Source: an uncultured Rhodobacteraceae bacterium (GTDB taxonomy: Bacteria > Pseudomonadota > Alphaproteobacteria > Rhodobacterales > Rhodobacteraceae). Taken from it: a stretch of DNA of 64,000 nucleotides. Position 1 is the stretch's first letter. Each line of letters starts with the position of its first letter. The stretch is taken from NCBI GenBank assembly GCA_947503965.1, contig CANNFU010000004.1, positions 364,654 to 428,653 on the forward strand, in the 5' to 3' direction. This document shows positions 20,929 to 53,235 of this stretch, piece by piece. The notes under the pieces were generated by a model. That model did no database searches and was not told the origin of the DNA. It was given only the letters and a program-made list of their open reading frames with translations. The translations under genes and the position numbers were made by a program.

Positions 20929-20968
20929 ACAAACGGGCCCGACTGTGACGCAGTCGGGCCCGTTTGTT
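20929..20968 (+). terminator. Rho-independent terminator (15-bp perfect stem, T-tract)
   Basis: Hairpin AAACGGGCCCGACTG-tgacg-CAGTCGGGCCCGTTT followed by GTT. Confidence 0.7.
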
Positions 20969-23701: not shown

Positions 23702-24868
23702 ATGCGCGCAGTAGCAAAATGGGTTTTGCGGCCGATCCTGATCCTGGCCGTGGTGCTGGGCGGATTGGCGATCTGGAAGCGTGAAGAGGTCACCAGACTG
23801 ATGGGCGTTCTGGATCTTTTCTCGGAAGAAAAGATCGTCAGCAACTTCTCGAACATGGAACAGATTTTCCTGCATCGGCAATTGCCCAGTACACGAGAGG
23901 CGCCAAGCCCCCTGCCCAACGGGACGCCTGCCACCTTGCCCCTAGAGGTAGCCGATTGGGTGGTGGACCGCAGCGTAACCGCACTTGTGGTTCTCAAGAA
24001 TGGCGCGGTGGTGTTTGAAGAATATTATCAGGGCACCGGGCAAGAGGATTTGCGCATCAACTGGTCAATCTCGAAAAGTTATCTGTCGGCCCTATTCGGT
24101 GTCTTGCTGGACGAAGGCGCGTTCGACAGTATCGATGATCCGGTTGTGAAATATGCGCCCGCCCTTGCCACGTCAGCCTATGCCGACGCGACCATCAAGG
24201 ATGTCTTGCAGATGCAATCCGGGGTCACCTTCGACGAAGATTATCTTGATTTCTTTTCGGATATTAACCGCATGGGACGGGTGCTGGCGCTGGGCCGGTC
24301 AATGGATGATTTTGCGATCAGTCAGGACGAAGCCTTTGCCGCGCCCGGCCAGCAATGGCAATATGTCTCCATCGACACCCACGTCATCGGCATGGTCATC
24401 CGCGGCGCGACGGGTCGCAGCATTCACGATCTGATGCGCGAAAAAATCCTCGCACCACTTAGCCTGCAAGCGGCTCCGTACTATCTGACCGATGGATTTG
24501 GAACGGCCTTTGTGCTGGGTGGGCTGAACACGACCACGCGGGACAACGCACGGTTCGGTCAGATGTTTGCAAATGGCGGGCGCTGGAATGGGCAGCAAGT
24601 CGTGCCCGAAGACTGGATCACGGTATCAACCCGCGCCAGCGCCAACACAGAACCCGGCAAGATCGGCTACGGGTATCAATGGTGGATCCCGGATGGGTCA
24701 GTACCCGGACAGTTTCTGGGGCGTGGTATTTACGGCCAATACCTCTATGTTGATCAGGTGAATAACGTGGTGATCGCGACCCATGGGGCCGATCGTCTGT
24801 TCCGTGAACCCGGCGTTCATGCGCAAAACGAAGCCATGTTCCGCCTGATCGCAGAAAGCCTGAACTGA
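23702..24868 (+). CDS. serine hydrolase, beta-lactamase/transpeptidase-like family (membrane-anchored)
   Basis: It begins MRAVAKWVLRPILILAVVL (TM anchor) and has an SxxK motif (SISKS). The ORF track start at 23579 is probably spurious. Confidence 0.7.
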   Translation: MRAVAKWVLRPILILAVVLGGLAIWKREEVTRLMGVLDLFSEEKIVSNFSNMEQIFLHRQLPSTREAPSPLPNGTPATLPLEVADWVVDRSVTALVVLKNGAVVFEEYYQGTGQEDLRINWSISKSYLSALFGVLLDEGAFDSIDDPVVKYAPALATSAYADATIKDVLQMQSGVTFDEDYLDFFSDINRMGRVLALGRSMDDFAISQDEAFAAPGQQWQYVSIDTHVIGMVIRGATGRSIHDLMREKILAPLSLQAAPYYLTDGFGTAFVLGGLNTTTRDNARFGQMFANGGRWNGQQVVPEDWITVSTRASANTEPGKIGYGYQWWIPDGSVPGQFLGRGIYGQYLYVDQVNNVVIATHGADRLFREPGVHAQNEAMFRLIAESLN

Positions 24869-26393: not shown

Positions 26394-26759
26394 ATGAGTC
26401 GTATGAAAACTATTCGCTATGCTTTTTGGGCCATCATTGGCCTTTGCCTGATCCTGATCGGACTGGCCAACCGTGACATTGTAACGGTCCGCGCCATGCC
26501 CGAAGCCCTGGGCGAGCTTTTGGGTCTGTCACCGGATGTACAGTTGCCGCTGTTTGTCGTGATCTTCCTTGGCGTTGGGGCCGGTTTGATGATCGGCTTT
26601 CTGTGGGAATGGGTGCGTGAGCACCGCATCCGGGCCGATGCGCGTGGCAAGGCGCGCGAGGTCGAGAACCTCAAGCGCGAAGTGCAACAGCTCAAAGGGG
26701 CTGCTGCTGGTGCAAAGGATGATGACGACGTTCTCGCGCTGCTCGAAAAGACCGGCTGA
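26394..26759 (+). CDS. LapA-domain (DUF1049) inner-membrane protein
   Basis: 121 aa with two TM helices and a charged C-terminal tail. It occupies the conserved position between ihfB and trpF. Confidence 0.65.
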
Positions 26760-27406
26760 TGTCCTCTGATATTCGGGTGAAGATTTGCGGTCTGCGCGAT
26801 GCAACCGCGATGCAGGCTGCCCTGGACGCGGGTGCCGCCTATGTCGGCTTCGTGTTTTTTCCGAAATCACCACGCAGTATCAGTGTTTCAGATGCCACTG
26901 TTTTGGCAGCAAAGGTGCCTGTTGGTGTGGCCAAAGTCGCGCTTGTCGTCGACCCGGACGATACGCAACTGGATGAGATTACAAACCATGTCCCGATCGA
27001 CATGATCCAACTGCATGGGTCCGAGACGCCCGAAAGGATCGCGGCAATTCAGGCCCGTTACGGTCTGCCGGTGATGAAGGCGATCGGCGTCGCGGATGCG
27101 ACGGATGTTGCGCAGATCGATACATATGCCAGGGTCGCCGACCAGATACTTATTGATGCCAAGCCGCCCAAAGATGCAGATCGGCCTGGCGGCAACGGGG
27201 CCCGGTTTGACTGGAACCTGATCGCCGGACGTCGCTGGCCGGTGCCTTGGATGCTGGCAGGCGGTTTGACACCGGAAAATGTGGCTGAAGCGGTGCGCGT
27301 TACCGGCGCGCGCCAGCTTGATCTGTCGTCAGCGGTGGAAAGTGCGCTGGGCAAGAAGGACCCCGCCTTGATCAAGGCTTTCACAGACGCTGTGCGTGCG
27401 ATTTAA
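26759..27406 (+). CDS. trpF: phosphoribosylanthranilate isomerase
   Basis: It begins [21 protein letters not shown].. and has a TIM-barrel PRAI. Its start overlaps the lapA-like stop. Confidence 0.85.
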
Positions 27407-27438
27407 CCTTTCGTTCACCAAAAATATCCATATTTCTG

Positions 27439-27672
27439 GTGATGCATGGCGTCTCTGTTCATATCTCTCCGGAACGCTGGCTGCGTCAGATGTTTTCGGC
27501 GCAGGCCGCGCGTGATGGCGGGGTGATCCGGCGACAGGTGCAGGATGTGGAACGGCTGATCGGTCGAGATCTCTTTGAATCAGAGCTACGACGGCGCGGC
27601 TATTGCGCGGTCGAGAATGCCGGACAGTATGTTGTCTTTTGTAACGCCGAACCGCTGCGATTGATTAAATAG
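27439..27672 (+). CDS. hypothetical small protein (77 aa) inserted between trpF and trpB
   Basis: This is an ORF call only, with no recognisable domain. It is followed by a REP-like double palindrome. Confidence 0.3.
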   Translation: MMHGVSVHISPERWLRQMFSAQAARDGGVIRRQVQDVERLIGRDLFESELRRRGYCAVENAGQYVVFCNAEPLRLIK

Positions 27673-27673
27673 G

Positions 27674-27718
27674 CAAATTCCTTCGAAGGAATTTGACAAG
27701 GCTTTTACAAAAGCCTTG
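27674..27718. repeat. REP/BIME-like double palindrome (copy A)
   Basis: CAAATTCCTTCGAAGGAATTTG followed by CAAGGCTTTTACAAAAGCCTTG. A near-identical composite element lies at 49614-49657. Confidence 0.6.
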
Positions 27719-27801: not shown

Positions 27802-29028
27802 ATGGCCAACGATCTATTCAACAGCTTCATGACTGGCCCCGACGAAAAGGGCCGCTTTGGTGATTTCGGGGGCCGTTTCGTGTCGGAAACCCTGATGCCG
27901 CTGATTCTGGAGCTGGAAGAGCAATACGAACATGCCAAGACCGATGACAGTTTCTGGGCCGAGATGCACCATCTTTGGACCCATTACGTCGGCCGCCCCA
28001 GCCCGCTGTATCATGCCGAACGGCTGACCGAACATCTGGGCGGCGCCAAGATTTACCTCAAGCGCGATGAGCTGAACCACACCGGCGCACATAAGATCAA
28101 CAATGTGCTGGGCCAAATCATTCTGGCCCGCCGCATGGGCAAATCCCGGATCATCGCCGAAACAGGTGCCGGCCAACATGGCGTTGCCACGGCAACGGTC
28201 TGCGCCAAGTTCGGGTTGAAATGCGTCGTCTATATGGGCGCACATGATGTGGAACGTCAGGCCCCCAATGTTTTTCGTATGCGCCTGCTGGGGGCCGAGG
28301 TCATCCCTGTCACCTCTGGCCGTGGCACATTGAAAGACGCGATGAACGACGCGCTTCGCGACTGGGTCACCAATGTCCGCGACACGTTTTACTGCATTGG
28401 CACTGTGGCAGGCCCGCATCCCTATCCGGCGATGGTGCGCGACTTTCAGGCCATCATCGGTCAGGAAACCAAGGAACAGATGCAGGCCGCCGAAGGGCGC
28501 TTGCCAGACACGATCATCGCAGCGATTGGCGGTGGATCGAACGCTATGGGCCTGTTCTATCCGTTCCTTGACGACAAGGACGTGAACATCATCGGCGTGG
28601 AGGCTGGCGGTAAAGGCGTGAATGCCAAGATGGAGCATTGCGCCTCGCTCACCGGCGGTCGACCTGGTGTGCTGCATGGCAACCGGACCTATCTGCTGCA
28701 GGATGATGTCGGGCAAATCCTTGAAGGGTTTTCGATCTCAGCGGGGCTCGACTATCCGGGGATTGGTCCGGAACATGCATGGCTGCACGATATCGGTCGC
28801 GCGGAATACGTTGCCATCACCGATGTCGAAGCGCTCGAGGCGTTCCAGCTTTGTTGCGCACTCGAGGGTATCATTCCTGCGCTTGAGCCGTCACATGCGC
28901 TGGCGCATGTGATGAAAATCGCGCCCGATTTGCCGAAAGACCATTTGCTGGTCATGAATATGTGTGGGCGCGGCGACAAGGACATCTTCACAGTCGCCAA
29001 ACACCTCGGTTTTGAGATGACAGGTTAA
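27802..29028 (+). CDS. trpB: tryptophan synthase beta chain
   Basis: 408 aa with a PLP-binding lysine context ([11 protein letters not shown]) and the GGGSNA motif. Confidence 0.92.
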
Positions 29029-43662: not shown

Positions 43663-44172
43663 ATGACGACCCAGAATTCAATCAGCAACCTGTCCGAAAT
43701 TGGTGCAGCATTACAAGTCGCTGCGCTGAACAGCTTTGTTGACGTATTCGAATTTCTAGTTGTTGACAATGTGACGACCAACGAAAACACCATCAATACA
43801 GATGGCTATTCGTTTCTGACGTCTGATGTCCCGTTTTTCGATGAAACCGTTACGATTGTTCTCGATACAGGCGATGATAATGACCCTAATGCGAACAATG
43901 CCCTCGAAGAGTCGACCGGCGTCGACTTTGAATGGTTGGCGATTACAACCGGCGACGACGGTATTATCGACAGCCAAGTTACGATGTTAGACAATGGGCT
44001 TTTGAACATCACTGAATATAACGAAGACGGCACAGCCGCGCTGACATCGACATTCTACGATCTGGACGACACGGAGGAATGGTCAATTCTTCAAGTCGAC
44101 GCCGATGGCAATGTGACAGAAATCCCGGACTTTGAATTCTCGTTCTTCCAAACATTTGATTTTGGCTTCTAA
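43663..44172 (+). CDS. hypothetical acidic protein (pI about 3.5), AT-rich orphan gene
   Basis: 169 aa, rich in D/E/T/N, with no signal peptide. GC is about 42% against about 60% background. It has an AT-rich promoter region and its own terminator. Confidence 0.5.
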   Translation: MTTQNSISNLSEIGAALQVAALNSFVDVFEFLVVDNVTTNENTINTDGYSFLTSDVPFFDETVTIVLDTGDDNDPNANNALEESTGVDFEWLAITTGDDGIIDSQVTMLDNGLLNITEYNEDGTAALTSTFYDLDDTEEWSILQVDADGNVTEIPDFEFSFFQTFDFGF

Positions 44173-44204
44173 GCCAAATCGCTCTCACTGCGACAAATGA
44201 ATAA

Positions 44205-44231
44205 GGGCAGCACCATTTTCTGGTGCTGCCC
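44205..44231. terminator. bidirectional intrinsic terminator (orphan gene / metK)
   Basis: GGGCAGCACCattttcTGGTGCTGCCC. Confidence 0.6.
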
Positions 44232-44291
44232 TGTCAATTTCAGCTTTATGCAATTTGGCAACTCATGCGCCAAGGGAACGCGGTTCTCGCA

Positions 44292-45488
44292 TCAAACAGC
44301 GCGTTTCAGCGCTTCCACCAGATCGGTTTGCTCCCAGCTGAACCCGCCATCCGCATCCGGTTCGCGTCCGAAATGGCCGTAGGCCGCGGTACGTTCATAG
44401 ATCGGTTTGTTCAGGTGCAGATGCTGCCGGATACCGCGCGGGGTCAGGTCCATGACCTGCGCGATCGCGCGTTCAATCGCCTCTGGATCAACCTCGCCAG
44501 TTTCATGCGTGTTGGCATAGATCGACAAAGGCTTGGCGACCCCAATCGCATAGCTCAGCTGGATGGTGCAGCGTTCGGCCATACCAGCGGCAACGACGTT
44601 CTTGGCCAGATAACGCGCGGCATAGGCGGCAGAGCGGTCCACCTTGGTCGGGTCCTTGCCGGAGAAAGCACCACCACCATGCGGGGCGGCACCGCCATAG
44701 GTGTCCACGATAATCTTGCGCCCGGTCAGGCCCGCATCCCCGTCAGGGCCGCCGATAACGAATGTCCCGGTGGGGTTCACCCACCATTCCGTATTCGCCG
44801 TGATCAGACCATCAGGCAGCACTTCGCGGATATAAGGTTCGACAATGGCGCGGATATCGGCGCTGGTCTGGCTTTCCAGTTCGTGCTGCGTGGATAGCAC
44901 AATTGACGTCACCTCGACCGGTTTGCCACCGGCATAGCGCAATGACACCTGACTTTTGGCGTCGGGGCGCAATGTGGGCTGTTCGCCGGATTTGCGGACC
45001 TCGGCCAGACGGCGCAGGATCGCATGGGCGTACTGGATCGGGGCCGGCATCAGCGCGTCGGTCTCGGTCGTGGCATAGCCAAACATGATGCCCTGATCAC
45101 CGGCACCTTCGTCCTTGTCCTCGGCTGCATTCACGCCCTGCGCGATATGTGCAGATTGTTCGTGCAACAGGTTCGTCACCTTGCATGTCGCATGGTGGAA
45201 CTTGTCCTGCTCATACCCGATATCTTTGATGCAGGCGCGCGCGATGTCATCAACGCGGGCCATATAATCCTTGAGCTTTGTCTGGTCTGAAAGACCAACC
45301 TCACCCCCGATCACGACCCGGTTTGTTGTGGCAAATGTTTCGCAGGCAACCCGTGCTTCGGGTTCTTCGGCTAGAAATGCGTCCAGCACCGCGTCAGAGA
45401 TACGGTCGCAGACCTTATCTGGGTGGCCTTCGGACACGGATTCCGAAGTGAAAATGTAGTCTTGTCGTGCCATGGGGATGTGCTCCAA
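44292..45488 (-). CDS. metK: S-adenosylmethionine synthetase
   Basis: It begins ...[31 protein letters not shown]. The likely start is MARQ at about 45473. Confidence 0.95.
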
Positions 45489-45561
45489 TAAAATTAACTG
45501 CCACGTCAGGAAGCCGTTGTGACAGAACCGACCCCGGCTCTATGAGGTCAGATCACCAAGG

Positions 45562-47989: not shown

Positions 47990-48478
47990 TTATTCCTTAT
48001 ATGGGTCAGATATACCCAGTTTGCCAAGTATCTCTGTTTCCAAACCTTCCATCAAGATCGCGTCACGCTCACGTTCATGATCAAAACCCAGCAGATGAAG
48101 TGTGCCGTGGACAAGTAAATGAATGGCATGGTCGTGCAGTGATTTGCCTGCGACCGCTGCTTCCTTTGCGCATGTATCATAGGCGATGGCAATATCACCC
48201 AGCGCATTGTCCGGTACTGGCTGCGGGGGCAGCGGCATTTCGCCATCCACCGCAGCGGCGCGTTCATCCGACGGCCAGCTCAGCACATTGGTTGGCCGGG
48301 GTTTCGCGCGAAAATCCTGATTCAGCACCGCAATGCGGGCATCGTCACACGCGAGGATGCTGATCTCAAAAACCGATGGTTCCAGGCCAAGCCGTTCAAG
48401 TGCCGCGTCGGTGGCGGTCTGCGCGAGCGCTTCGACATCACCCCAGCGCGGGTCTTCGACCACGCAATCAACGCTCAC
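47990..48478 (-). CDS. ybeY: rRNA maturation RNase YbeY
   Basis: It carries the HGTLHLLGFDH metal-binding motif. Confidence 0.9.
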   Translation of the reverse strand: MSVDCVVEDPRWGDVEALAQTATDAALERLGLEPSVFEISILACDDARIAVLNQDFRAKPRPTNVLSWPSDERAAAVDGEMPLPPQPVPDNALGDIAIAYDTCAKEAAVAGKSLHDHAIHLLVHGTLHLLGFDHERERDAILMEGLETEILGKLGISDPYKE

Positions 48479-49488
48479 TTGGCATCGTCCGCCTCGTAAG
48501 CCTCAATAATCGCGGCAACCAATGGGTGGCGCACCACATCCTTGGACGTGAAGTAGTTGAAGCTGATCTTGGGGATATTCTTCAACAAACGCTCTGCATC
48601 CCACAGGCCGGAGTTCACGCCGCGTGGCAGGTCGATCTGGGTGCGGTCCCCGGTGATAACCATGCGCGAACCTTCACCCAAGCGGGTCAGGAACATCTTC
48701 ATCTGCATGGTGGTGGCATTCTGCGCCTCGTCCAGCACCACAAAGGCGTTCGACAATGTGCGCCCCCGCATGAAAGCAAGCGGTGCGATCTCGATGATCT
48801 TCTCTTCCATCATCTTGGCCGATTGCTTGCCTGGCAGAAAATCGTTCAGCGCGTCATAAAGCGGCTGCATGTAGGGGTCGACCTTGTCCTTCATGTCGCC
48901 GGGCAGATAGCCCAGCTTTTCGCCCGCCTCGACCGCCGGGCGGGACAGGATGATCTTGTCCACATGGCCGCTGATCAGCATGTTCACACCTACGGCCACC
49001 GCCAGATAGGTCTTGCCCGTCCCCGCCGGGCCAATGCCAAAGGCCAGTTCGTTGTCAAACAGCGATTTCACATAAGCCTTTTGTGCATCGGTGCGCGGTT
49101 CGATCAGCTTCTTGCGGGTCTTGATTTCGACGCGCGCAATCTCGCCCCTGAACATCTCGATCTGGTCGGCATCGGCAACCGGGTCGAACGTGTTATCCGG
49201 CCCCATACGCAATTCGCGGTCCAGATCGCCCGGCTCCAGCGTGCGCCCCGCCTCTAACCGGGTGTAAAGTGACTGCAACACCTGGGTGGCATCATGGCGC
49301 GGCCCGTCCTCGCCGATGACAGCCAACTGATTGCCGCGGCGCAGGATTTGCACATTCAGCTTGTCTTCGATGGTCGTGAGATTGCGGTCATATTCACCGC
49401 AAAGATCAATCAACAGGAAGTTGTCGGGGAATTCCAGCAGGGATTCATTGACGGGGTCAGCGGGTGGGGTCAGGGCACCAGTGGCCAA
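48475..49488 (-). CDS. phoH: PhoH-family ATPase (YbeZ-like)
   Basis: Walker A GPAGTGKTYLAVA. There is a 4-bp overlap with ybeY. Confidence 0.9.
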   Translation of the reverse strand: MATGALTPPADPVNESLLEFPDNFLLIDLCGEYDRNLTTIEDKLNVQILRRGNQLAVIGEDGPRHDATQVLQSLYTRLEAGRTLEPGDLDRELRMGPDNTFDPVADADQIEMFRGEIARVEIKTRKKLIEPRTDAQKAYVKSLFDNELAFGIGPAGTGKTYLAVAVGVNMLISGHVDKIILSRPAVEAGEKLGYLPGDMKDKVDPYMQPLYDALNDFLPGKQSAKMMEEKIIEIAPLAFMRGRTLSNAFVVLDEAQNATTMQMKMFLTRLGEGSRMVITGDRTQIDLPRGVNSGLWDAERLLKNIPKISFNYFTSKDVVRHPLVAAIIEAYEADDAK

Positions 49489-49613
49489 ACAGCTCTCCTT
49501 TGAGTCTAGATGTAACTATCGTGGCAAGTCCGACCGCAAGGCGCAAGCGGTGATGGCGGATTGTCACGGATTTGATACGAAATTCAGCACGAAACGATGC
49601 AACGGGCGCAAAT

Positions 49614-49657
49614 CAGACTTTTCGAAAAGTCTGAACAAATTCCTTCAAAGGAATTTG
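49614..49657. repeat. REP/BIME-like double palindrome (copy B)
   Basis: CAGACTTTTCGAAAAGTCTG followed by CAAATTCCTTCAAAGGAATTTG. Its second half is near-identical to the copy at 27674-27695. Confidence 0.6.
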
Positions 49658-49662
49658 CCGCA

Positions 49663-50973
49663 TCACTTAATCAGCTCACCTTTCAATGAATTCGGGCTGT
49701 CTTGCAGGACTTTGACCCGGCAGACCTGTCCCAGCACATCGCTGGGTGCATCCGCGTAAACTGCATGCAAATATTCCGACTTCCCGATCATCTGCCCCGG
49801 CTCTCGCCCTGCTTTTTCAAACAGAACCTTCACCTCTCGACCCACCATCGACGCCTGCGTCGCATGTTGTTGTTCGCGCAAGAGCGCCTGCAACCGCTGC
49901 AATCGATCATGCATCACATCCTCGGGCAGTTGCGGCTTTTCCGCCGCCGGGGTGCCGGGGCGGGTCGAGTATTTGAACGAATAGGCCTGCCCGTAATGCA
50001 CATCGCGGACAAGTTGCATGGTGTCTTCAAAGTCTTCCTCGGTCTCACCTGGAAAGCCGACAATGAAGTCACCAGAGAGCAGCAGATCAGGCCGCGCCGC
50101 ACGGATACGTTCGATCAAACGGATATAGCTTTCGCCAGTGTGCTTGCGGTTCATCGCCTTCAGAATGCGATCTGATCCCGACTGCACCGGTAAATGCAGG
50201 TAAGGCATCAGCTTGTCACATGTCCCGTGGGCATCAATCAGCGCGTCATCCATGTCATTGGGATGCGAGGTCGTGAAACGGATCCGCTCCAGCCCATCGA
50301 CCTTGTCGAGGGCCCAGATCAGCCCGGCCAAACCGCCTTCGTGCCCGTGATAGGCGTTCACATTCTGACCAAGCAAGGTGATTTCCTTGACACCCGCCGC
50401 GACCAGCTCTTGCGCCTCACGGATCACCCGATCTGCGGGGCGCGACACCTCTGCCCCGCGCGTGTAGGGCACCACGCAGAAGGCGCAGAATTTGTCACAG
50501 CCTTCCTGCACCGTCAGAAACGCGGTTGGGCCGCGCTTGCCCTTGGCGCGCGTTTTCAGCGTGTCGAATTTGTCATCTTCGGGGAAATCGGTGTCGAGCG
50601 CCTTTTCACCCGCCCGCACCGCATCCTCCATGTCTGGCAGGCGGTGATAGCTTTGCGGCCCGACCACCAGATCCACCATCGGCTGACGGCGCATGATCTC
50701 CTGACCCTCGGCCTGCGCAACACAGCCTGCGACACCGATCTTCAAATCAGGATTTTCGGCTTTCAAATCCTTATAGCGGCCCAATTCGGAATAGACCTTT
50801 TCGGCGGCCTTTTCCCGGATGTGGCAGGTGTTCAGCAGGATCATGTCCGCGTCATCGGGGGTCTGCGTTTCGACATAACCCTTCCCGCCCAGCGCCTCCG
50901 CCATGCGTTCGCTGTCATAGACATTCATCTGACAACCATAGGTCTTGATAAATAGCTTCTTGGGCGCTGACAT
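49663..50973 (-). CDS. miaB: tRNA-i6A37 methylthiotransferase
   Basis: It begins [24 protein letters not shown] and has radical SAM CxxxCxxC and a TRAM domain. The alternative start MKALLM is at 50988. The ORF track extension to 51780 is spurious. Confidence 0.9.
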
Positions 50974-50994
50974 CAGAAGGGCTTTCATCATAGG

Positions 50995-51951
50995 GTGAAT
51001 CTGGCGTCTTCTATCGGGTCGGCGGATCGCTTGCAATGCGGGGCAATATCGCAGAATTTGCCCGGACCTCAGCCGGATCATGACATGACGCACTACCCCG
51101 ATCTTTCCGCCCTGACCCGCGACCGCAAACGGTTGCTGGCCCAAGGGCCCGTGGCCCTGATACTGGTCGAGGATACGGTCAAGGTTGAAAGCACAATCCG
51201 TCATCACCTGACGTTGGGTTTTGGGCAGGTCATCGCATTTTGTATGCCTGATCTGACATTGCCTGCGACCGTCGCCGATCAGGTGCACCGTGTCGATTAC
51301 GATATCGCCAGCGAAGAGGCGCTGCCGGACATTGTGAACGCGCTGATCAATGCGGCGCCCGACAACTGGTTCTATTACGGCTACAACGCCGAATACCTGT
51401 TCTATCCATTCAGCGAACATCGCAGTGTCGGCGAAATGCTGGGCTTTGTCACCGAAGAACGGCGTGATGTGGTCATGTCTTATGTGGTTGATCTGTACGC
51501 GGGCGACCTGACCGCACACCCGAGCGGTGTTGCTACGGATGATGCCTATTTTGACAAATCGGGTTACTATGCGCTGGCCCGGCAGGATGCTGAGGGAGAG
51601 GTGCTTGAGCGGCAGATGGATGTCTTTGGCGGGCTGCGCTGGCGGTTCGAGGAACATATCGCCCAGAACAGGCGTCGGATCGACCGCATATCTTTGTTCC
51701 GGGCCAAACCGGGTCTGAAAATGCTGGCTGATCGCACATTCAATCGCCCAGAATACAACACCGTCGCCTGCCCCTGGCACAACAGCCTGACAGCGGCGGT
51801 CGCGTCATTCCGCACCGCCAAGGCGCTGCGCCGCAATCCGGGCAGTCGGCACGAGATCGACAGCTTTCACTGGCAACAGTCAGAGCGGTTCAACTGGCGC
51901 GCGCAGCAACTGATGGATCATGGCTGGATGGAACCGGGGCAATGGTTTTAG
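50995..51951 (+). CDS. hypothetical protein (likely start MTHYPDLS at 51085)
   Basis: ORF call only, with no confidently recognised domain. Its 3' end overlaps the RAYT gene convergently by about 60 bp. Confidence 0.45.
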
Positions 51952-52429
51952 AAGCGATAGCGCCCGTCCCGCGCACTGCCAACGAACTATAGGGCCAGTC
52001 GCCCGCTTTCTTGACCAAACCGGCCTGCACGGGCGCTGTTACGATCAGATGCATGTGACGGTCATAGTCGCCGATGTCCCGGATCAGATGGTCCCAGAAC
52101 CGGCGCTGCCAAATCCCCTTTTCGCCGCGTTTTTGCAGGCGCGGCGCGACATAGGCCGGTGCCGGAACATGGCGCGAAAAGGTCGATTTGATCAATCGCC
52201 ACCGTTTTGAGAAATCCGCATCGCCATTCGGTAACACCCAGATCATATGCAACCGGTCCGGCAGGATCACAGCACTCGCGATTTCAAACGGCCAACGTTT
52301 CATGCAAAGCCGTGTGGCATCGCGCAGCAGATCAATCTGACTGACCAGCAGGTCAGAAGCCGGATTCTGCAAGCGCGCTGTAAAGAAATAGGTGCAGTCG
52401 GGCACATAGCGTCGTTGGCGATTGGTCAT
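51890..52429 (-). mobile_element. REP-associated tyrosine transposase (RAYT, IS200/IS605 TnpA-like HUH Y1)
   Basis: It begins MTNRQRRYVPDCTYFFTARL and has HUH (RLHMIW) and catalytic Tyr region (GDYDRHMHLIVTAP) characteristic of RAYTs. The ORF track N-terminal extension is ignored. Confidence 0.65.
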
Positions 52430-52527
52430 GCGACAGACTTGCCCGGGCATGGTTAGTAAGAGGTAAACGCAACACGTTTTTCGCCAATGACGCACCGGAA
52501 TGCTCAGAAAGTGGGACCGCGCAGGTC

Positions 52528-53235
52528 TTAGCCCATCTCGGTCCCGGCGTTTCGTCTTGCCATTCGGATCAAGGCAAGATCGGCCTTGCCCTTGACCAGC
52601 CATGACAGGCCAAAGGCCCAGATCCCTATCGCCTCGAACCAGAACACCAGACCATAGCCGACAACGATATCTCGCGCCGGACCAGCGCCAAGGATTTTCA
52701 CCGCAGAGGCCGCGGCAATCCCGATCAGTGACAGAATGATGATCCATCCGCAGGCCAGATAGATCTGCCGACGTCCAGGATTAGCGGTGCGGGGGAACTT
52801 CACCAGACAGAAGACCGCGAGACAGGCAAAGAATATCAACGCAGACGCATAGTGAAACATCGGGCTGGTCCCGATTCCGACAATATTCTGGGTCATCGTC
52901 GCGATCTGGTCTGTTGGGCTTTCGTTGGGAAACAGCGCCACGCCAAAGGCTGACACGCCCGCAATCGTGCCCAGCCAATCATCATCAATGACATCGCCCT
53001 CGCGGCGGCCATAGCCGCGATAGCAGATCAGGAAGACGCCGATTGCACACAGCGTACCGACAAAGATGTCGCGGTAGGTCGTGTGATAGAAATCGCTGAT
53101 CGATGGCTCAATCCGGCGATAGTCCATCAGCCCGCCGATGATCAGAACCAGCGGCAGTGCCATGCCCAGAATGCCCAATGCCGTCCGGACCCGGTGATAG
53201 GATAAAACCATATCCTGACGATGTTTTTCGACCAC
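52528..53235 (-). CDS. hypothetical polytopic membrane protein
   Basis: 235 aa with about 6 TM helices. Confidence 0.5.
   Translation of the reverse strand: MVEKHRQDMVLSYHRVRTALGILGMALPLVLIIGGLMDYRRIEPSISDFYHTTYRDIFVGTLCAIGVFLICYRGYGRREGDVIDDDWLGTIAGVSAFGVALFPNESPTDQIATMTQNIVGIGTSPMFHYASALIFFACLAVFCLVKFPRTANPGRRQIYLACGWIIILSLIGIAAASAVKILGAGPARDIVVGYGLVFWFEAIGIWAFGLSWLVKGKADLALIRMARRNAGTEMG

Follow-up and report, generated by a model that had tools for sequence, protein, structure and literature searches.

The window, the whole 64-kb stretch of DNA that we analyzed, carries two 45-bp palindromic units, at 27674 to 27718 and 49613 to 49657. A sequence-only reading of this DNA had placed them there, in the trpF-trpB and phoH-miaB intergenic regions. 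We confirmed the units in the sequence, and family matches of the flanking genes confirmed the two regions. The genes and palindromes at the two sites are as follows.

26759 to 27406: trpF (PRAI; PF00697)
27439 to 27672, plus strand: a 77-codon ORF with no family match, between trpF and the first array
27674 to 27695, no strand: PalA copy 1, CAAATTCCTTCGAAGGAATTTG, an 11-bp perfect palindrome
27697 to 27718, no strand: partner of copy 1, CAAGGCTTTTACAAAAGCCTTG, with 10-bp arms and the center AC
27802 to 29028, plus strand: trpB-like PLP enzyme gene (PALP; PF00291), downstream of the first array
48475 to 49488, minus strand: phoH (PF02562), downstream of the second array
49613 to 49634, no strand: partner of copy 2, TCAGACTTTTCGAAAAGTCTGA, an 11-bp perfect palindrome, identical in the syntenic relative L107
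49636 to 49657, no strand: PalA copy 2, CAAATTCCTTCAAAGGAATTTG, with 10-bp arms, palindromic except for the central CA
49663 to 50985, minus strand: miaB (TIGR01574, 502 bits), whose 3' end the second array follows

Both units follow one plan: a palindrome of the form CAAATTCCTT-NN-AAGGAATTTG, here called PalA, and a second, different 22-bp palindrome, its partner. This pairing had been read from the sequence before, and we found it in each unit, with CAAGGCTTTTACAAAAGCCTTG as the partner at the first site and TCAGACTTTTCGAAAAGTCTGA at the second. A single A separates PalA from its partner in both units, and the order relative to the upstream gene is the same in both: stop codon, PalA, partner. 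The two partners are related (AG-R-CTTTT-NN-AAAAG-Y-CT), and where they differ, the difference is compensated on the opposite arm. At the first site, PalA begins 2 nt past the stop codon of the 77-codon ORF, and the partner ends 84 nt before the trpB-like start at 27802. If the 77-codon ORF is not a real gene, the first array lies 267 nt past the trpF stop codon. Copy 1 is probably inside a trpF-trpB operon. At the second site, PalA is located 5 nt past the miaB stop codon on the minus strand, and about 125 nt, part of them a conserved stretch ahead of phoH, lie between the array and phoH.

The four palindromes are 32 to 41% GC, against 57.3% for the 64-kb window. Of the perfect stems in the 64 kb that reach 8 bp or more, no others are AT-rich 22-mers in intergenic DNA. 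We found no third PalA site in the 64-kb window with up to 3 mismatches allowed, and the PalA search gave a match in 0 of 100 dinucleotide-preserving shuffles. Two further AT-rich palindromes were placed outside the family, the one at 23813 to 23836 because it is coding sequence and the one at 44161 to 44178 because it runs across a stop codon and has an ordinary terminator behind it. A further AT-rich palindrome, CCAAAAATATCCATATTTCTGG, is imperfect and not of the TTCGAA type; it occupies 27418 to 27439, 11 nt past the trpF stop codon, and reaches into the start of the 77-codon ORF.

Each unit is predicted to fold as two adjacent hairpins (-21 to -23 kcal/mol; z-scores, -3.3 to -4.7), and the predicted fold of PalA copy 1 is a 9-bp stem with a tetraloop. 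Neither window copy was called as a canonical intrinsic terminator on the transcribed strand; the stems have the low GC content given above and no U-tract. The array is followed by CGGCACC at copy 1 (plus strand) and by TTTGCGCC at copy 2 (minus strand). At the gathering threshold, Rfam reported only a tRNA and a SAM/SAH riboswitch in the window and no family matching the arrays, and a permissive Rfam scan around copy 1 gave noise only. The riboswitch (RF01727, 60.9 bits; 45481 to 45528, minus strand) lies directly upstream of a minus-strand ORF at 44292 to 45488. We also observed GC-rich terminator-type hairpins at 20929 to 20967 and 44204 to 44232, one with a 17-bp stem flanked by ACAAA and TTTGT and the other with a 12-bp stem. 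Thus, the organism also uses conventional terminator-like structures.

The sequence-only reading had proposed a search for the pattern beyond the window. We ran such searches on genome and metagenome collections, and each gave at least 120 matches, those listed being almost all from GC-rich Rhodobacterales. The PalA scan used one genome per species and the pattern AAATTCCTT-NN-AAGGAATTT, which has 18 fixed bases, and it yielded at least 120 loci. Among 120 PalA matches listed, 111 are in GC-rich Rhodobacterales contigs. The other 9 are in low-GC genomes, have no partner palindrome, and are about as many as chance would give for 18 fixed bases. Among the matches listed, at least 14 named genera carry PalA (Tabrizicola, Rhodobacter, Pseudogemmobacter, Xinfangfangia, Fuscovulum, Frigidibacter, Gemmobacter, Thioclava, Salipiger, Tropicibacter, Ponticoccus, Pelagimonas, Nioella, and Roseicyclus), and the number of PalA loci in one genome reaches at least 5. 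Three loci with typical arrays, L096, L099 (CP059262.1), and L103 (NCCO01000124.1), are on GC-rich contigs labeled as "Exiguobacterium profundum" and "Bosea sp." MAGs; these are probably mislabeled or contaminated bins. The plasmid collection gave one weak Jannaschia match and otherwise chance matches. Viral contigs gave 7 matches, all in contigs of 31 to 45% GC without a partner palindrome, and these are therefore chance matches.

A second palindrome of 20 to 24 bp abuts PalA in about 100 of 104 cases. The spacer between the two is 0 nt in 86 of 101, the arms are 10 to 12 bp, and the partner is perfect in 94 of 101. Partner sequences come in more than 40 variants with a common plan, CAAA-N4-TTCGAA-N4-TTTG. 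Across the family, arrays consist of 2 to 4 non-identical perfect palindromes, usually without a spacer; two units are the rule, and the rarer arrays of three or four are found at loci L027, L054, L076, and L119. The center of a unit is 0 to 4 nt long and is CG in about 60% of units, with otherwise variable sequence. Arrays without PalA also occur, so PalA is the commonest variant but is not obligatory. There are 2 arrays in the 64-kb window and about 11 unseeded arrays in each Mb of the fetched loci, which by rough extrapolation would come to some 50 to 100 arrays per genome.

We determined the placement of the arrays with crude gene calls based on ORF length and GC3. By these calls, 53 PalA sites are between tandem genes, 29 are between convergent genes, and only 2 are between divergent genes. 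Over 213 arrays, the median stop-to-array distance is 8 nt, and 75% lie no farther than 15 nt from the stop codon. Under relaxed criteria, a gene end lies within 150 nt of about 90% or more of the arrays. In 28 of 39 convergent pairs, neither stop codon is more than 15 nt from the array, so that the array makes up the whole intergenic region. In tandem contexts, 60 arrays are closer to the upstream stop codon and 33 are closer to the downstream start, the downstream distance being a lower bound. PalA is stop proximal in 31 arrays and distal in 22, and we found no clear preference for either polarity.

Base pairing is conserved in these arrays. The metagenome scan used the pattern CAAA-NNNN-TTCGAA-NNNN-TTTG twice in a row and left the N4 blocks unconstrained. 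The contigs of the matches listed are all 59 to 72% GC. Among these matches, 118 of 120 first halves and 115 of 120 second halves have N4 blocks that are complementary throughout, where chance would give 1 in 256. The same matches hold 31 distinct doublets, and the two halves are identical in none of them. We also examined covariation in 35 distinct PalA-seeded doublets, in which the partner helix was unconstrained. We found changes on both sides at 10 of 10 pairs of the partner helix, with 96% of cells paired; 0 of 500 shuffles reached this pairing, and sliding the register destroyed it. Of 350 cells, only 3 are G-U. Where arms differ between orthologues, the changes are likewise compensated. 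A closing helix between the array flanks was not found (2.14 of 6 pairs, compared with 2.10 in shuffles).

The miaB site can be followed across relatives. Locus L107, from an uncultured Rhodobacteraceae bacterium, is syntenic with the window, and its coding flanks have about 80% DNA identity. We found that 44 of the 45 bases of its miaB doublet are identical to the window and that the sole change is in a hairpin center, whereas the adjoining intergenic DNA has diverged with indels. That the doublet was kept at this orthologous site despite flanks of about 80% identity argues for long-term retention rather than recent mobility. In L251, a Yoonia/Loktanella relative, the miaB doublet is kept and its partner is symmetrically lengthened by one pair. 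The doublet is decaying in L248 and absent from L254 and L255, and in L252 and L253 another palindrome replaces it, between miaB and an inserted convergent corA. Retention in L107 and the variable sites in the Yoonia/Loktanella relatives together indicate that units are kept over the long term and are also gained and lost. At the other site, L114 has nearly the same partner palindrome as copy 1, but it is not a trpF-trpB orthologue. We also noticed that about 100 nt ahead of phoH (49489 to 49600; ..CGCTTGCGC..TTGCCAC.ATA..TAGACTCAAAGGAGAGCTG) are conserved in L107, L248, L251, and L254. This stretch persists in relatives even without the twin array and is probably a promoter or leader of phoH.

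The sequence-only reading had noted a REP-associated tyrosine transposase (RAYT) gene near the second unit. There is indeed a RAYT homologue at 51890 to 52429 on the minus strand, 2.2 kb from copy 2 (NCBIfam NF047646, 158 bits). The protein aligns with E. coli TnpAREP (PDB 4ER8; E = 7e-32 over residues 3 to 150) and has no Pfam family match. The active site of TnpAREP consists of Y115 with H59-M60-H61, N119, H123, and E161 (PMC3479197). In our alignment, the RAYT-like protein has R, L, and H at positions 59 to 61, L at 115, and A at both 119 and 123, which corresponds to H59R, Y115L, N119A, and H123A; its LPDRLHMIW and HMHLIVTAPVQAG stand opposite LPEHMHCIW and HVDYIYINPVKHG of E. coli. The 120 homologues listed are 58 to 100% identical and, where named, come from Yoonia or Loktanella. 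The first HUH His is replaced in 119 of these 120 (by K, Q, R, and others, followed by x-H), the motif not being located in one, and the catalytic Tyr is present in none of those listed whose Tyr-region motif was located. The order fabA, fur, DUF998 gene, RAYT-like gene, glycosyltransferase-like gene, miaB, phoH, ybeY is conserved. The gene belongs to a syntenic Yoonia/Loktanella clade that includes L107 and L248 to L255 and that has lost the N119/H123 equivalents as well. Given this conserved gene order and the lost active-site residues, the RAYT-like protein is vertically inherited and should be catalytically dead. Judged by its sequence, the gene looks like a domesticated or inactivated RAYT. 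Databases still name the protein "REP-associated tyrosine transposase," and this automatic label can cover a protein without catalytic residues. The glycosyltransferase-like ORF (50995 to 51951, plus strand; weak PF13704 match) runs toward the RAYT-like ORF and shares about 60 nt with its 3' end, an overlap that is called in all syntenic relatives.

The same reading had raised the possibilities that copies of the palindromes flank the RAYT gene and that they carry a GTAG-like tag. We found nothing similar to the units within 51400 to 53000, and the RAYT-like gene of the window has no flanking palindrome. The arrays have no GTAG or CGTC, and their flanks are variable and G/C rich. In relatives, the RAYT-like gene is flanked by a different palindrome, AAGATGGGT-N4-ACCCATCTT or GTAAGGTGGAT-N4-ATCCACCTTAC, with one copy over the stop codon of the upstream gene and one inside the RAYT-like 3' end. 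Nioella ostreopsis (L098) has a RAYT with an intact HLH and Tyr, flanked by GTAG-tagged GC-rich REPs (GGTGGGCAG..CTGCCCACC; full form, GTAGGGTGGGCAG..CTGCCCACC). The features at these loci are as follows.

L251, 4925 to 4946 and 5461 to 5480: palindromes bracketing the RAYT-like gene
L107, 5643 to 5662 and 6177 to 6196: palindromes bracketing the RAYT-like gene
L252, 4925 to 4950 and 7751 to 7776: the RAYT-bracketing palindrome family
L098, 4259 to 4938 and 7646 to 7777: RAYT/REP locus, 8 kb, with two AT-rich twin arrays

The bracketing family also fills the miaB-corA convergent gap in L252 and L253. The window retains only a degenerate, coding-constrained left arm of the upstream bracketing copy, near 52522 to 52540. 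In the L098 locus, the AT-rich twins are 2.8 kb from the RAYT and its REPs. Since tagged REPs and AT-rich twins occur in the same locus, the two repeat families are distinct and coexist. Across about 1.8 Mb of array-bearing loci, we found RAYT homologues only in the loci syntenic with the window and in one Nioella locus.

On these results, the active or recently active REP/RAYT system that the sequence-only reading suggested does not stand up: the arrays have no tag and do not flank the RAYT gene, the catalytic residues are lost, other palindromes accompany the RAYT genes of relatives, and the miaB doublet has been retained. What stands of the REP doublet or BIME signature that it described is that the arrays are repeated extragenic composite palindromes with a REP/BIME-like placement past stop codons and in tandem and convergent gaps; what falls is the tie to RAYT.

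We tentatively favor the reading that the units are members of an order-wide, RAYT-independent, REP-like twin-hairpin family acting at transcript 3' ends, although we hold it with somewhat less than even confidence. The arrays can form hairpins, covary strictly, are symmetric, and sit at the 3' ends of genes; one is retained at an orthologous site, and the family is independent of RAYT. According to this model, transcription would pass the stop codon into the array, and the RNA would fold into two adjacent hairpins of about -10 kcal/mol each. RNA may be the active form, with an effect on 3'-end formation or stability, and the twin hairpins would set the 3' end of the upstream message or shield it. 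Their effect could come from blocking 3'-to-5' exonucleases, as REPs do, or from serving as a "hairpin cluster" that favors termination and needs no U-tract. The stop-proximal hairpin would be within reach of the terminating ribosome while the second would stay folded, which may be why the units come in pairs. As a perfect palindrome, each unit is the same on both strands, so one array can serve both genes of a convergent pair. Convergent arrays are often the only sequence available for the ends of two opposing transcripts, and they are structure constrained and strand symmetric, which favors a REP-like 3'-end role. Strong termination would harm a trpF-trpB operon; therefore, copy 1, which probably lies in one, argues against strong termination everywhere and fits an intercistronic stabilizer.

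Some observations count against a role in RNA. The stems are weak and AT rich, and no U-tract follows them. A constraint on RNA only should tolerate G-U pairs, yet they are nearly absent. The CG center is kept though it is unpaired, which suggests a constraint on duplex or hairpin DNA or else templated repair. An RNA-only role leaves these last two features, and the never-identical halves, unexplained and so leaves room for a mechanism at the DNA level. The arrays might, for example, be an undescribed, order-wide form of Rhodobacterales genome punctuation, built of tandem perfect AT-rich palindromes that have to differ from each other, whose symmetry is maintained in DNA and which a host factor reads at gene ends, independently of any transposase. 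Either fold-back templated repair or selection acting on both strands would keep the arms symmetric, and a conserved host factor would read the hairpin or cruciform as a bidirectional terminator, insulator, or supercoiling relay. We regard this as possible but lean against it. We are a little more doubtful of a structural element in DNA, namely, cruciforms or slipped hairpins or AT-rich landing pads at gene ends. By analogy with BIME-2 and gyrase in E. coli and with GapR at active-gene 3' ends in Caulobacter, such an element might recruit a topoisomerase or nucleoid protein where transcription-driven supercoils build up. It would account for arms that are perfectly symmetric with almost no G-T "wobble" states and for the fully palindromic center, TTCGAA or TTGCAA, that most units keep though it is unable to pair in a hairpin. 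The units are also AT islands in DNA of 59 to 72% GC, they have no polarity to the flanking genes (the 31 proximal and 22 distal PalA copies noted earlier), and they sit at gene ends, convergent gaps included. However, an arm of 10 to 11 bp is short for cruciform extrusion, and the positive supercoils that collect at gene ends disfavor cruciforms. AT-richness alone needs neither strict arm complementarity nor a fixed 22-bp unit, and the binding protein is only hypothetical.

It is unlikely that the arrays are REPIN-like mobile DNA, that is, non-autonomous elements spread in trans by the nearby RAYT-like protein, another Y1/HUH enzyme, or a further enzyme, with locations that reflect only where insertions are tolerated. 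Such spread would fit the multiple copies per genome at non-orthologous sites, the recurrence of the same 22-mers in many combinations in arrays of 2 to 4 units, the miaB site that is present, decayed, or absent among Yoonia/Loktanella relatives, and the RAYT homologue 2.2 kb from copy 2. But PalA is letter-identical across at least 14 genera, unlike usual REPs, and our searches turned up almost no copies in plasmids and none in viral contigs. H59, Y115, N119, and H123 are missing from the RAYT-like protein, and its clade, among the homologues listed, lacks the first His and the Tyr. Its gene is not flanked by twins, the RAYT genes of relatives are flanked by their own different palindromes, the intact Nioella RAYT has GTAG-tagged GC-rich REPs instead, and the array loci in the 1.8 Mb have no RAYT homologue beyond the syntenic and Nioella cases. 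The palindromes also lack the GTAG tag and the bulge, both of which TnpAREP needs for binding and cleavage (PMC3479197). Operator sites, with each 22-bp palindrome binding one dimer of a DNA-binding protein, are very improbable. In their favor, both the outer CAAA/TTTG blocks and the inner TTCGAA block are conserved and show dyad symmetry, but the divergent, promoter-bearing spacers hold only 2 of 84 arrays, and the arrays follow the stop codons of unrelated genes. Moreover, the non-conserved N4 blocks covary perfectly, which a duplex-binding dimer does not require, and a center of 0 to 4 nt would alter the half-site spacing. We concluded that RAYT mobilization and dimeric-regulator binding are both poorly supported.

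A role at transcript 3' ends, the reading that we favor, bears on how transcripts end in GC-rich alphaproteobacteria. These bacteria have few canonical terminators, and their transcript ends are poorly understood, especially where convergent genes are 50 to 70 bp apart. A conserved twin-hairpin unit that fills such gaps is a concrete and easily mutated candidate for ending transcripts, and model roseobacters and Rhodobacter relatives are suited to testing its role.

The family resembles the REPs and BIMEs of enterobacteria and pseudomonads in being made of short, hairpin-capable extragenic palindromes, in composite units, in tandem and convergent gaps near stop codons, and in tens or more copies per genome. 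REPs stabilize upstream mRNA and are usually species or genus specific; they are imperfect hairpins with a conserved 5' tetranucleotide, which is GTAG or, in many alphaproteobacteria, CGTC. In contrast, the sequence here is conserved across many genera and is absent from RAYT flanks, and its arms are perfect and symmetric, without a bulge and without a GTAG or CGTC tag. BIMEs are laid out as asymmetric REPs in alternating orientation with linkers, whereas the units here have no orientation and abut without a linker. Units within an array are never identical here, and they are AT rich in a GC-rich genome. Thus, the distinctive traits of the family are its tandem non-identical perfect palindromes, its AT-richness in GC-rich genomes, its order-wide sequence conservation, and its RAYT independence. 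REP-like repeats can exist without a RAYT partner, a point that matters to the dispute about their nature as parasites or as tools of the host.

Untagged REP-like stem-loop families have been described in Mycobacterium, Deinococcus, Bordetella, Brucella, and cyanobacteria, and more are expected (PMC3733652). They are like the family here in being palindromic repeats without a conserved terminal tag or known enzyme. In the searchable literature on Rhodobacter and Rhodobacterales palindromes, REP, RAYT, and hairpins, neither this Rhodobacterales family nor arrays built from non-identical perfect palindromes turned up in our searches; the coverage is incomplete, and novelty is unproven. Gupta and Pal (2021, PMC8355165) proposed that hairpin clusters, with at least 2 hairpins less than 15 nt apart and no more than 80 nt past the stop codon, act as termination units. 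The arrays share this layout, with two adjacent predicted hairpins and a median stop-to-array distance of 8 nt, and, like the clusters, would need no U-tract. Those clusters are gene-specific hairpins, whereas here a repeated sequence family with weak AT-rich stems occupies the site and termination is putative. Bidirectional terminators between convergent genes are a further likeness, in that an array can fill the whole convergent gap.
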